Shown here: positions 1,813-4,397 of the stretch, piece after piece
How the letters are laid out: every line of letters begins with the position of its first letter
How positions within the stretch are numbered: position 1 is the stretch's first letter
IMG/VR virus record: IMGVR_UViG_2778261591_000014
Reading direction: 5' to 3' (one strand)
DNA: 4,397 nucleotides
Source of the DNA: a virus
Taxonomy: Duplodnaviria > Heunggongvirae > Uroviricota > Caudoviricetes
Made by a program: the position numbers and the translations under genes
Notes under the pieces: model-generated
What the model was told of the DNA's origin: nothing
What the model saw: the letters and a program-made list of their open reading frames with translations, nothing else
Databases searched by the model: none

Positions 1813-2517
1813 TCACGAACTTTTCAGCCACTCCCTTGCCTCGATGTCATCCAGATGGCGAGATTGCTTCAGAATACCAGCCACATACTCCACCTTTGCT
1901 ACTTGATGATAAGGCAACGTTATTGGCCTGTGGTCCTGGTTGATGCTTGTAAATTGGTATTCTCCGTCTCTGTCATAGCCAAGAACTTTGATCATGTTGT
2001 GTCCTTCAACAGTTCTGACAAACACCTCATCACCCGGGAATACTTTGGTGTTAGGCTCAATGAGTACATATTCTCCTGATTTTATTCTGGGCCACATGCT
2101 GTCTCCTTTCACACGAAGACCAAAGGCATCTGGATCATCGCTATAAATTTTGAGCCACCCATCGCGCTCTTCGGTCATCTCGATGGCACCATCAACACCA
2201 AGAATTGCCTCACCAACCACGCGCACTAACCCTTTTCTTACCTTACCGACAAAAGTTAAAGAATCTGAGCATGATGCAATTGGTGTTACATCATGTACCA
2301 AATCAAGCCACCCATTAGGTAACCCAAGCGCGGCTTCAAATTTTCTTGCTAGTTTATCCCCTATGTTTCGAGTGCTTTTTTCACCGGAGACTTGCGTGAG
2401 TTGAGAAGGGCTAACCCCAAGCTTATCGGCAAAGCTTGCATTAGTGTTACCCGCGATTTTTTTATGCTCATCTAGCAAAAACGCCAGATTCGATTTGCGA
2501 ATATCTTTGTTTTCCAT
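1813..2517 (-). CDS. cI: CI-type prophage repressor (N-terminal HTH, C-terminal S24/LexA-like autocleavage domain), 234 aa
   Basis: N-terminus has an HTH-like segment (NASFADKLGVSPSQLTQV). C-terminus has S24 hallmarks: G-D-S-M with the catalytic Ser (RVKGDSMWP) and a downstream Lys (NMIKVLG). Divergent from cro across an operator region. Sequence differs from lambda CI, so a different immunity specificity. Confidence 0.9.
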   Translation of the reverse strand: MENKDIRKSNLAFLLDEHKKIAGNTNASFADKLGVSPSQLTQVSGEKSTRNIGDKLARKFEAALGLPNGWLDLVHDVTPIASCSDSLTFVGKVRKGLVRVVGEAILGVDGAIEMTEERDGWLKIYSDDPDAFGLRVKGDSMWPRIKSGEYVLIEPNTKVFPGDEVFVRTVEGHNMIKVLGYDRDGEYQFTSINQDHRPITLPYHQVAKVEYVAGILKQSRHLDDIEAREWLKSS

Positions 2518-2630
2518 CTCACAATTTTCCCTCTATTTAGCAAATGGATAAATACGCAATATGATAAATTTACATTGCGGATGATTTATCAAAATGGTAA
2601 AGTTGTTCTGTGTGATAAACGGAGGCACTA
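2518..2630. promoter_or_regulatory. OR-like divergent operator/promoter region (PRM leftward, PR rightward)
   Basis: 113-bp AT-rich gap between divergent cI and cro. Repeated GATAAA-type motifs at 2546-2554, 2561-2569, 2583-2590 (reverse) and 2613-2619; inverted repeat TATTTA-N9-TAAATA at 2534-2554; palindrome TAAATTTA at 2565-2572. Candidate PR: -35 TTGCGG 2575-2580, -10 TAAAGT 2598-2603 (weak matches). cro RBS GGAGG at 2621-2625. Confidence 0.6.
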
Positions 2631-2864
2631 ATGAGTAATGAACTACTACGCTGGCGAAAAGAGGCTTCTAGTGAGGAATGGAAGCGACTCGCCGCATTAG
2701 CGAAAACTTCAGTTGGCTATCTTGACCAGATTGCATATGGATTTCGAAGAGCTTCCCCTGATAAAGCGAATGCAATCGAAGAAGCTACTCGTAATTTCAC
2801 GGGTTATAAACCTGTGAAAAAGGAAAACCTAGTGTTCGTATCGCGTAGAGCATCGGCTGCATAA
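2631..2864 (+). CDS. cro: Cro-like small HTH regulator, 77 aa
   Basis: Small ORF transcribed divergently from cI, directly after the operator region, with a strong RBS. Predicted HTH segment (LAALAKTSVGYLDQIAYG...ANAIEEAT) resembles Cro/YdaS-like regulators. Call is mainly by position and size. Confidence 0.6.
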   Translation: MSNELLRWRKEASSEEWKRLAALAKTSVGYLDQIAYGFRRASPDKANAIEEATRNFTGYKPVKKENLVFVSRRASAA

Positions 2865-2871
2865 GTAACAC

Positions 2872-2917
2872 CGCTATTTTCACAATGGACATTCGTCCTA
2901 CGTCGCTGACAAAGCGA
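2872..2917 (+). promoter_or_regulatory. nutR-like antitermination site: boxB hairpin at 2903-2917, weak boxA-like CGCTATTTT at 2872-2880
   Basis: TCGCT-GACAA-AGCGA is a 5-bp stem with a 5-nt loop whose loop matches the P22-type boxB (GCGCUGACAAAGCGC) as I recall it; lambda boxB has loop GAAAA. Located between cro and cII as nutR is in lambda. The boxA candidate matches 7 of 9 and sits 22 nt upstream, further than in lambda. Confidence 0.4.
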
Positions 2918-2984
2918 GTCCCAATATATCTGACCAACTAAGGCCATATGCGTTTCCACGCATACCTTTCAACTAGCTATTCAC

Positions 2985-3030
2985 TATTGGAAATCTTAAG
3001 AAATGGAACAAACAAGTTACAGCAAACTAT
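2985..3030 (-). promoter_or_regulatory. Putative PRE (CII-activated leftward promoter) with a CII-binding direct repeat
   Basis: Minus-strand TTGC-N6-TTGT (complement of 3012-3025) overlaps the 5' end of cII, matching the TTGC-N6-TTGC CII site that flanks the -35 of lambda PRE, in the same relative position. Confidence 0.35.
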
Positions 3031-3299
3031 CACAGCGAGAAATTGATCGCGCTGAAACTGATTTACTCATCAACCTGTCAACGCTTACCCAGCGCGGTCT
3101 GGCAAAGATGATTGGCTGTCATGAATCGAAGATAAGCAGAACAGACTGGAGGTTTATAGCTTCGGTCTTGTGTGCTTTTGGCATGGCATCAGACATCAGT
3201 CCGATTAGCAGAGCTTTTAAGTATGCGCTTGATGAAATCACAAAGAAAAAATCCCCGGTGGCCGCCGGGGACTCTAAGCAAATTGATATGCAATTCTGA
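3003..3299 (+). CDS. cII: CII-like lysogeny-establishment transcriptional activator, 98 aa
   Basis: Same length class as lambda CII (97 aa). C-terminus KKKSPVAAGDSKQIDMQF versus lambda KKRPAATERSEQIQMEF; central KISRTDW versus lambda QISRWKRDW. Position between cro/nutR and O matches lambda. Confidence 0.85.
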   Translation: MEQTSYSKLSQREIDRAETDLLINLSTLTQRGLAKMIGCHESKISRTDWRFIASVLCAFGMASDISPISRAFKYALDEITKKKSPVAAGDSKQIDMQF

Positions 3300-3320
3300 G
3301 GGAATTACTGGATCAATCCA
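3244..3320 (-). ncRNA. oop: oop-like antisense RNA overlapping the 3' end of cII, ending at a tO-type intrinsic terminator
   Basis: Minus-strand sequence ...GAUCCAGUAAUUCCCUCAGAAUUGCAUAUCAAUUUGCUUAGAGUCCCCGGCGGCCACCGGGGAUUUUUUCUUUGU closely resembles lambda oop as recalled. Terminator stem 3253-3258 / 3265-3270 (CCCCGG/CCGGGG) is followed on the minus strand by a U-run (3243-3252). Ends approximate. Confidence 0.6.
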
Positions 3321-3328
3321 CAGGAGTC

Positions 3329-3357
3329 ATTATGACAAATACAGCAAAAATACTCAA
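3329..3357 (-). promoter_or_regulatory. Putative Po promoter driving oop
   Basis: Minus strand: -35 TTGAGT (complement of 3352-3357), 17-nt spacer, -10 CATAAT (complement of 3329-3334), placing the start near 3320. Lies inside the 5' end of O on the opposite strand, as in lambda. Confidence 0.45.
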
Positions 3358-4270
3358 CTTCGGCAGAGGTAACTTTGCCGAACAGGAGCGTAATGTGGCA
3401 GATCTCGATGATGGTTACGCCAGACTATCAAATATGCTGCTTGAGGCTTATTCAGGCGCAGATCTGACCAAGCGACAGTTTAAAGTGCTGCTTGCCATTC
3501 TGCGTAAAACCTATGGGTGGAATAAACCAATGGACAGAATCACCGATTCTCAACTTAGCGAGATTACAAAGTTACCCGTCAAACGGTGCAATGAAGCCAA
3601 GTTAGAACTCGTCAGAATGAATATTATCAAGCAGCAAGGCGGCATGTTTGGACCAAATAAAAACACCTCAGAATGGTGCATCCCTCAAAACGAGGGAGGT
3701 TCCCCTAAAATGAGGGACATCCCTCAAAACGAGGGAAAATCCCCTAAAACGAGGGATAAAACATCCCTCAAATTAGGGGATTGCTATCCCTCAAAACAGG
3801 GGGACACAAAAGACACTATTACAAAAGAAAAAAGAAAAGATTATTCGTCCGAGAATTCTGGCGAATCCTCTGACCAGACAGAAAACGATCTTTCTGTGGT
3901 TAAACCGGATGCTGCAATTCAGAGCGGCAGCAAGTGGGGAACAGCAGAAGACCTGACCGCCGCAGAGTGGATGTTTGACATGGTGAAGACCATCGCACCA
4001 TCAGCCAGAAAACCGAATTTTGCTGGGTGGGCTAACGATATCCGCCTGATGCGTGAACGTGACGGACGTAACCACCGCGACATGTGCGTGCTGTTCCGCT
4101 GGGCATGCCAGGACAACTTCTGGTCCGGTAACGTGCTGAGCCCGGCCAAACTCCGCGACAAGTGGACCCAGCTCGAAATCAACCGTAACAAGCAACAGGC
4201 AGTCGTGACAGCCAGCAAACCAAAACTCGACCTGACAAACACAGACTGGATTTACGGGGTGGATCTATGA
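3332..4270 (+). CDS. O: Replication initiator O (lambda O-type origin-binding protein), 312 aa
   Basis: Translation is near-identical to lambda O as recalled (MTNTAKILNFGRGNFA...TDWIYGVDL), apart from a 13-aa in-frame insertion (PQNEGGSPKMRDI) matching two extra iterons. RBS AGGAG at 3322-3326. Stop overlaps the P start (ATGA at 4267-4270). Confidence 0.95.
   Translation: MTNTAKILNFGRGNFAEQERNVADLDDGYARLSNMLLEAYSGADLTKRQFKVLLAILRKTYGWNKPMDRITDSQLSEITKLPVKRCNEAKLELVRMNIIKQQGGMFGPNKNTSEWCIPQNEGGSPKMRDIPQNEGKSPKTRDKTSLKLGDCYPSKQGDTKDTITKEKRKDYSSENSGESSDQTENDLSVVKPDAAIQSGSKWGTAEDLTAAEWMFDMVKTIAPSARKPNFAGWANDIRLMRERDGRNHRDMCVLFRWACQDNFWSGNVLSPAKLRDKWTQLEINRNKQQAVVTASKPKLDLTNTDWIYGVDL
3681..3804 (+). 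repeat. Replication origin iterons: six ~17-18-bp imperfect repeats (O-binding sites) inside the O gene
   Basis: Repeats of consensus TCCCTCAAAACGAGGGA begin at 3681, 3701, 3720, 3740, 3764 and 3787, each with internal dyad symmetry and ~20-23 bp periodicity. The last four match the four lambda ori iterons; the first two are additional. Confidence 0.9.
3805..3845 (+). other. A/T-rich unwinding region of the origin
   Basis: ACAAAAGACACTATTACAAAAGAAAAAAGAAAAGATTATT directly follows the iterons, as in lambda ori. Confidence 0.8.
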
Positions 4271-4397
4271 AAAACATCGCCGCACAGATGGTTAACTTTG
4301 ACCGTGAGCAGTTGCGTCGGATCGCCAACAACATGCCGGAACAGTACGACGAAAAGCCGCAGGTACAGCAGGTAGCGCAGATCATCAACGGTGTGTT
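4267..4397 (+). CDS. P: Replication protein P (helicase loader), 5' partial, continues past the window end
   Basis: ATG at 4267 overlaps the O stop. Translation MKNIAAQMVNFDREQLRRIANNMPEQYDEKPQVQQVAQIINGV matches the lambda P N-terminus as recalled. No stop before the window end, which is why the ORF track omits it. Confidence 0.9.
   Translation, partial: MKNIAAQMVNFDREQLRRIANNMPEQYDEKPQVQQVAQIINGV

Follow-up and report, generated by a model that had tools for sequence, protein, structure and literature searches.

Mosaic early regulatory and replication region of a Shiga-toxin prophage with H-19B-type immunity

Here we describe a 4,397-nucleotide (nt) stretch of caudovirus DNA (IMG/VR record IMGVR_UViG_2778261591_000014, hereafter 'the window') that carries a cI repressor gene, right operators (OR), cro, a nutR site, cII, an oop-like antisense RNA, the replication gene O with an internal origin, and the start of P. 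We conclude with high confidence that the window represents the early part, for regulation and replication, of a lambdoid Shiga-toxin (Stx) prophage with H-19B immunity, and that its functional modules were joined by homologous recombination at short linkers that are conserved. The identity of the window to lambda rises in steps, from the level of random sequence to about 98%, and the segments that do not align with lambda match other lambdoid phages closely. The mosaic, like the N/nut system and the origin with six iterons, is already known, as it is that of the published H-19B regulatory region, which is also in GenBank. The discovery value of the analysis is therefore small; its worth lies in mapping the joints to the base (the cro stop codon, a 33-bp po/oop box, a joint within cI, the relic of a lambda-type cI end and the tImm terminator block). 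Correct annotation nevertheless has practical use, because this region controls the induction and replication of a Shiga-toxin prophage.

The H-19B region was reportedly sequenced by Neely & Friedman in 1998, and Juhala et al. are said to have described the general mosaic phenomenon for HK97 and HK022 in 2000. An earlier note, made from the sequence alone, had read positions 1813–4397 as a junction between heteroimmune cI and cro genes with a P22-type boxB and a lambda-identical oop/O/P module. Its observations are partly confirmed: most of them hold, but the oop terminator was misjudged, and two points, the status of cII and the word 'identical', were imprecise. Its interpretation is supported. 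Coordinates refer to the window unless they are preceded by L006, the source genome record; + denotes the strand presented and − its complement.

Source of the region

The whole window, including its first 163 bases, is 100% identical to the Stx1a prophage of Escherichia coli OkiPb01711, a bovine isolate from Okinawa. The stxA1a gene lies from L006 17841 onwards, about 6.4 kb beyond the right-hand end of the window and downstream of a Q antiterminator gene, so the window belongs to a Stx1a-converting prophage. In a megablast search of phage records, which gave matches in 340 of them, the Stx phages ST2-8624 and Stx2a_WGPS9 were 100% identical over 160–4397, and BP-4795 and the classical Stx1 phage H-19B (AF034975) were 99.2–99.3% identical. 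Local blastn from base 164 gave 99.98% for ST2-8624 and 99.27% for AF034975, from which the window differs by 24 substitutions and 6 gap openings. At a coverage of at least 80%, 74 complete genomes of E. coli and 29 phage records carry the arrangement. The gene names cI, OR1–3, cro, cII, O and P were taken from the annotations of H-19B and ST2-8624; the Pfam matches are in line with them (Peptidase_S24 for cI, Phage_CII and Phage_rep_O).

Stepwise identity and recombination joints

We compared the window with HK97, 933W, HK022 and P22 using blastn, and with lambda using a sliding 50-nt identity profile; a three-way alignment was also made. These comparisons, a check of the kind proposed in the earlier note, show stepwise changes of identity and no uniform divergence, and lambda, HK97, HK022, 933W and P22 sufficed to fix the breakpoints. 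Identity to lambda is around 40% from 2518 to about 3240, 54–72% over 3218–3317 and 98–100% from about 3300 to the end, barring one 39-nt gap.

Recombination joints had been expected near the cro–cII and cII–O boundaries, and both joints are real and sharp. Joint 1 (2855..2857, no strand assigned) falls in the last codons and stop of cro, with H-19B-specific sequence on its left and HK97/933W-type sequence on its right; the GCATAA at the end of cro is also present in lambda. Homology to 933W extends without gaps over 2855–4397 (98.8%), and homology to HK97 over 2857–3339 (93.6%), a block that comprises nutR, cII and the 3′ part of oop. HK022 is homologous over 2988–3339 only (94%), starting just upstream of cII; HK022 is not known to have an N/nut system. 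The donor type on the cII side is HK97/933W-like.

Joint 2 is a short way upstream of the start codon of O. Mismatches specific to lambda end at 3319 and those specific to HK97 begin at 3328, which brackets the HK97-to-lambda crossover at about 3320–3327; HK97 is unalignable beyond 3339. The crossover is inside a 33-bp conserved lambdoid box (3307–3339, −; ACTGGATCAATCCACAGGAGTCATTATGACAAA), the 'high homology region' that was described by Hayes et al. in 2012 at the oop promoter and 5′ end, and that is conserved in lambda, 434, 21, 933W, H-19B, HK022, HK97, P22 and others (PMC3349717). In comparisons at the DNA level, P22 matches the window only in this box and in a weak 55-nt match within O. 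P22 is thus not the DNA-level donor of any part of the window, and the link to P22 is confined to the class of boxB and N. We also found joints or their traces beyond those expected from the earlier note: inside cI at about 2266, in a relic of a cI end (1761–1787) and in a terminator block (207–326).

The heteroimmune core

The cI gene (1813..2517, −) encodes a LexA-like repressor of 234 amino acids with an S24 peptidase C-terminal domain (Pfam Peptidase_S24), and it contains a joint at 2266/2267. To the left of this joint, the C-terminal domain (1813–2266) is common to the 933W repressor, which matches 1764–2266 at 96.4%; a C-terminal domain in common between the 933W and H-19B repressors has been reported (PMC3202840). 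The N-terminal DNA-binding domain (2267–2517) is specific to H-19B immunity and unrelated to that of 933W. Because 933W has the cI C-terminal domain but a different N-terminal domain, OR and cro, the H-19B-specific immunity core can be delimited to 2267–2854. This core is 99.7% identical to AF034975 and 100% identical to BP-4795 and ST2-8624. Its distribution is all-or-none, as it was found in only 35 phage records, every one at an identity of at least 95%. Identity across the cI N-terminal domain, OR and cro places the window in the H-19B immunity group, whose repressor would be expected to block superinfection by homoimmune phages only.

The OR operators, with the promoters pR and pRM (2534..2602, +), comprise OR3 (2534–2550), OR2 (2557–2573) and OR1 (2583–2599) in the annotation of ST2-8624. 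They follow an approximate palindrome, ATTTATCA-N3-TGATAAAT, which is unlike the lambda operator. The pattern occurs three times in L006, only at OR and at the left operator (OL), against 0.15 occurrences expected by chance. Downstream, cro (2631..2864, +) encodes 77 amino acids; it is annotated as cro in H-19B and matches PHROG 35, 'transcriptional repressor' (4.4e-7). The statement that cI and cro are unrelated to their lambda counterparts holds: their DNA is unalignable with lambda (about 40% identity, the random level), no similarity of the Cro protein to lambda or P22 Cro was detectable, and the cI protein resembles lambda cI only in the S24 core (35.6% over 45 amino acids, E = 7e-4).

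A P22-type boxB and the cognate N

Between cro and cII, downstream of pR, lies nutR (2872..2917, +), which is composed of a boxA-like sequence (CGCTATTT; 2872–2879, +; 23 nt upstream of boxB), a spacer hairpin (GGAC-ATTC-GTCC; 2887–2898, +; ending 5 nt upstream of boxB) and boxB itself (TCGCT-GACAA-AGCGA, TCGCTGACAAAGCGA; 2903–2917, +; UCGCU-GACAA-AGCGA as RNA). The boxB has a 5-bp stem and, as the earlier note had observed, a GACAA loop of the P22 type rather than the GAAAA of lambda (GCCCT-GAAAA-AGGGC). It is the sole perfect 5-bp-stem GA(A/C)AA hairpin in the window, and it folds as predicted. The source genome, H-19B, HK97 and 933W each carry exactly one perfect GACAA hairpin with a 5-bp stem downstream of pR and exactly one downstream of the leftward promoter pL. 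The printed nutR sequences of H-19B and 933W do not differ from that of the window, and HK97 departs from it at three positions, including one in boxA. The nutL boxB of the source genome is GCGCTGACAAAGCGC, identical at 15 of 15 bases to the P22 nutL boxB. The boxB 15-mer of the P22 N-peptide/boxB structure in Protein Data Bank entry 1A4T (GCGCUGACAAAGCGC; PMC11480772) is present in the nutL of the source genome.

An N antiterminator of non-lambda specificity had been predicted outside the window, and the N gene is located at L006 4030–4413 (−), 2.6 kb to the left of the window and beyond an ISEc8 insertion. Its product (127 amino acids; Pfam N_peptide, 1.6e-15) matches H-19B N completely and HK97 N at all but 3 of 127 residues, and is 97.6% identical to 933W N. 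The last 30 amino acids match P22 gp24 at 21 positions (70%, E = 2e-10). The source genome thus supplies the non-lambda N that had been predicted. The arginine-rich motif of this N, GNSRSRRRERLKAKALA, aligns with GNAKTRRHERRRKLAIE of P22 and has no tryptophan where lambda N has W18, the residue that stacks on boxB.

Experimental work on the same nut class exists for H-19B, for which footprinting and antitermination by N have been published (PMC3526286, PMC4499122). RNase H and T1 footprints on H-19B nutR show that N together with NusA/G protects the spacer and the G of the boxB loop, and two hairpins are mentioned (PMC3526286).

HK97-type cII and oop

The cII gene (3003..3299, +; 98 amino acids; Pfam Phage_CII, 1.1e-31) had been taken for a diverged lambda cII. 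It is instead the HK97/933W/HK022-type allele, with an amino acid identity of 91.8% to HK97 and 33% to lambda. A likely CII-binding repeat, TTGC-N6-TTGT (3025–3012, −), was read from the sequence and would mark the −35 region of the promoter pRE.

An oop-like antisense RNA of about 76 nt (3246..3321, −) overlaps the 3′ end of cII (3246–3299). It has the expected parts: a leftward promoter, po, inside the start of O (3357–3329, −; TTGAGT-17-CATAAT with an upstream TG), and a terminator (3275–3248) with the hairpin CCCCGG-CGGCCA-CCGGGG followed by a U-run. The RNA folds at −31.2 kcal/mol (z = −3.9). Its 5′ end is presumably at 3321, a position set by homology to the lambda oop sequence. The oop sequence itself is not that of lambda. 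Only the 5′ approximately 20 nt and po are in the conserved block, in which 34 of 38 bases (3302–3339) are identical to lambda; the body and terminator are of the HK97 type (3238–3301, 91% to HK97 and 72% to lambda), and the hairpin differs from that of lambda. The proposal that the oop terminator region is near-identical to lambda was therefore mistaken. We infer the positions of the pRE site, the oop ends and the exact hexamers of pR.

An Rfam scan of the whole window with E values up to 1 gave nothing above threshold and nothing on oop or nut, and was uninformative. Sub-threshold matches arose by chance (snoRNA models on the iterons, STnc310 and others); weak matches to snR191 and TtnuHACA21 at 3701–3799 are artefacts of the inverted-repeat iterons and not RNA genes.

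A lambda-type replicon with six iterons

From 3302 to 4397, 1,037 of 1,057 aligned bases (98.1%) are identical to lambda, with 20 substitutions and a single 39-nt insertion at 3679–3717. The lambda-type replication initiator O (3332..4270, +; 312 amino acids including a 13-amino-acid insertion; Pfam Phage_rep_O, 3.7e-35) is 94.6% identical to lambda O with the insertion counted. It is followed by the start of P (4267..4397, +), which overlaps the O stop codon (ATGA) and runs off the window; 42 of its first 43 amino acids (97.7%) are those of lambda P. The description of O (outside the iteron insertion) and of the start of P as near-identical to lambda was thus accurate, and that of a 'lambda-identical' oop/O/P module applies to O and P, at about 98%, but not to the body and terminator of oop.

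The origin within O (3679..3802, +) has six iterons of about 18 bp (array at 3680–3802), compared with four in lambda, and is followed by an AT-rich tract at about 3806–3850, as read from the sequence. Segment 3679–3717 is a tandem copy of 3718–3756 (90% identical), and this duplication accounts for the 39-nt (13-amino-acid) insertion and the two extra iterons. The 933W annotation also lists six iterons. In a study of the six-iteron origin of Stx phages, in which O-P-ori plasmids with four or six iterons were compared for P27 and 933W, the two extra iterons bound O weakly, yet were needed for efficient replication (PMC7466680).

Proposed regulatory circuit

The sequence provides the parts, homologies and joints, and the following mechanism is modelled on the lambda, P22 and H-19B paradigm. 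The leftward cI and the rightward cro would compete at their own OR operators. Transcripts from pR would pass through cro into nutR, where the arginine-rich motif of the N protein that the phage itself encodes, to the left of the window and probably expressed from pL, would bind the P22-type boxB hairpin. N, together with NusA and NusG, would render RNA polymerase resistant to termination, allowing it to read into cII, O and P. The HK97-type CII is expected to activate the leftward pRE, opposed by the oop antisense RNA transcribed from po inside the start of O. O would bind the six iterons in its own gene and, with P, recruit the host DnaB. In evolutionary terms, a heteroimmune core of the cI N-terminal domain, OR and cro sits between an HK97/P22-type N–nut system and a lambda-type O/P replicon, with one recombination joint at the stop codon of cro and another inside the conserved 33-bp box of po and oop.

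Alternative explanations

A single lineage that diverged unequally from lambda, with fast immunity genes and slow replication genes, would need no mosaic. The S24 core that cI has in common with lambda cI and the Phage_CII fold of cII (33% amino acid identity) make all of the genes distant homologues. We give this explanation virtually no weight. Identity leaps from unalignable to 98% within about 30 nt, a step profile that refutes a single lineage, and the segments that are unalignable with lambda are 93–99% identical to HK97, 933W and HK022, which carry different neighbouring modules. HK97 has lambda-type operators, cI and cro beside the same N/nut and cII, and a lambda-type cI-end relic lies downstream of the real cI of the window. 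Equally negligible is the idea that the junctions are artefacts, whether of a chimeric assembly or of a hybrid phage made in the laboratory. Lambda-imm hybrids are often constructed there and the O/P block is 98% identical to lambda; however, the 74 genomes and 29 phage records with this arrangement come from independent laboratories, hosts and countries, and the lambda-like block has 20 substitutions, and a duplication of two iterons, that lambda does not have. The mosaic assembly that we favour retains one qualification on the side of its donors, which is that present-day lambda and HK97 are stand-ins for the true donors.

This is one of several points that weigh against our account, the rest of which concern the nut site. 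The fold of the 71-nt nutR region is no better than that of shuffled sequences (z = −1.0), as expected because the hairpins are so short. By a hand count, the raw identity of the N arginine-rich motif is 6 of 19 residues to lambda and 7 of 19 to P22, about equal for the two classes; for this reason, we infer the P22-like geometry of N–boxB binding from the RNA side and the absent tryptophan. The boxA-like sequence departs from the CGCTCTT consensus at its fifth base, where HK97 keeps the consensus (a single C-to-A change between CGCTCTTT in HK97 and CGCTATTT in the window, H-19B and 933W), and no boxA-like sequence could be seen in the roughly 80 nt that precede the nutL boxB (L006 ~4560–4640). 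Owing to these two features, the Nus-factor part of the lambda model may not fully apply. Finally, the published experiments come from H-19B, and the action of N at this copy of nutR is predicted. A rival view is that the GACAA hairpin resembles the P22 boxB by chance or convergence, and that N really targets another RNA structure or a larger one, for instance the hairpin upstream or an extended alternative fold. In its favour, the hairpin is short, the regional fold is not significant and a second hairpin lies 5 nt upstream of boxB. [quoted passage not shown] We nevertheless consider a chance resemblance very improbable, given that the GACAA hairpin occurs once after pR and once after pL in four genomes, that the nutL copy matches P22 at every base, that N and P22 gp24 have a homologous C-terminal domain, and that N with NusA/G protects the boxB loop G and spacer of H-19B nutR (PMC3526286). 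The boxB is the N site, and additional structure may modulate its function.

A further, joint proposal strikes us as rather unlikely: that the C-to-A change in the nutR boxA and the apparent absence of a nutL boxA might underlie the reported reduced dependence of H-19B N on NusB/S10, this N–nut class being a minimal boxB-plus-spacer system; and, separately, that the 2.4 kb of ISEc8 between OL/pL and the immunity operon could alter long-range OL–OR repression and hence the inducibility of the Stx1 prophage in this strain.

Left flank of the immunity region

Immediately downstream of cI, 25 nt past its stop codon, are the remains of a lambda-type cI 3′ end (1761–1787, −), consisting of the last eight codons, QWPEETFG-stop. 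This relic is identical to lambda at 27 of 28 bases and to HK97 at 24 of 24, and 933W has it too. It testifies to an older joint, left when the repressor gene was replaced at an earlier time. A second conserved block (207..326, −), downstream of the immunity operon, is 89% identical to lambda 35710–35825, just downstream of rexB, 93% to 933W and 84% to HK97; a terminator scan found in it an intrinsic terminator (307–326), the equivalent of lambda tImm and 933W tM.

Between these two conserved linkers, in the place of rexAB in lambda, are three overlapping genes (335..1676, −): a HigB toxin gene (1389–1676, −; Pfam HigB_toxin, 4.5e-30), a HigA gene (736–1392, −; Pfam HTH_3) and a gene for a SecB-like HigC of 134 amino acids (335–739, −). 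HigA has 218 amino acids and a long C-terminal extension that includes Trp128, which the published description of the HigBAC ChAD motif names. PADLOC models matched PD-Lambda-2_A (2.5e-42), PD-Lambda-2_B (3.8e-50) and PD-T4-9_C (3.2e-11, HigC). In a lambdoid prophage, Mets et al. placed the HigBAC anti-phage system 'downstream of the cI repressor'. In its domains, gene order, overlaps and position downstream of cI, the cassette looks like that toxin–antitoxin–chaperone system, and it is a predicted anti-phage locus. It lies to the left of the interval covered by the earlier note, 1813–4397, and forms part of the mosaic. AF034975 has no annotation for these genes, and ST2-8624 labels them 'hypothetical'. 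An NCBIfam scan of cro and of the toxin–antitoxin–chaperone genes returned no match.

The left end of the window is the terminal 163 bp of a 2,442-bp ISEc8 element of the IS66 family (1..163, no strand assigned), which is absent from H-19B and ST2-8624, with an 8-bp target duplication, TTTTGTTG, at 164–171. The complete element (tnpA-tnpB-transposase) is recorded at L006 4714–7171, an interval that takes in window 1–171, with the target duplication given as CAACAAAA. Its insertion site separates the terminator of the immunity operon from OL/pL; it interrupts no open reading frame and lengthens the distance from OL to OR by 2.4 kb. A copy is also present in the close relative OkiPb01717 and is missing from H-19B, ST2-8624 and most genomes.

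Comparison with known systems

The closest relatives, H-19B (AF034975; Neely & Friedman 1998, 2000), ST2-8624, BP-4795 and Stx2a_WGPS9, have the same genes in the same order and are 99.3–100% identical over 164–4397, including cI, OR, cro, nutR, cII, oop, the six-iteron O and P, and they are without ISEc8 to the left of 164. Lambda (NC_001416, 38.6–40.3 kb) is 98.1% identical in po, the 5′ end of oop, O and the start of P, and it has the same iteron family, an AT-rich tract to the right and the same start–stop overlap of O and P. It differs in having four iterons and is only 72% identical in the oop body/terminator and the 3′ end of cII; to the left of about 3240 it is non-homologous, save for the tImm block and the cI-end relic.

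HK97 (NC_002167) has identical boxB sequences in nutR and nutL and the same printed spacer hairpin; it is 95% identical in the nutR region (2857–3002) and 91.8% identical in the cII protein, and its N differs at 3 of 127 residues. It departs from the window in its lambda-type cI, cro and operators, its P22-type gp18/DnaB-like replication module and its boxA, CGCTCTTT. For P22 gp24 and its boxB (1A4T), the likeness comprises the GACAA loop on a 5-bp stem, a nutL boxB identical to that of the source genome, 70% identity in the C-terminal 30 amino acids and a common arginine-rich core, GN-x3-RR-x-ER, with no tryptophan. The nutR boxB here is closed by a U–A pair rather than the G–C pair of P22, gp24 has 100 amino acids compared with 127 in N, the middle regions of the two proteins are unrelated, and the immunity and replication DNA of P22 is non-homologous save for the 33-bp box. 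Finally, 933W (NC_000924) is 98.8% identical without gaps from nutR through P, has six iterons, and shares the cI C-terminal domain (96.4%) and N (97.6%). Its cassette downstream of cI consists of stk and other genes rather than HigBAC, and because its cI N-terminal domain, OR and cro are different, 933W and the phage of the window are heteroimmune.

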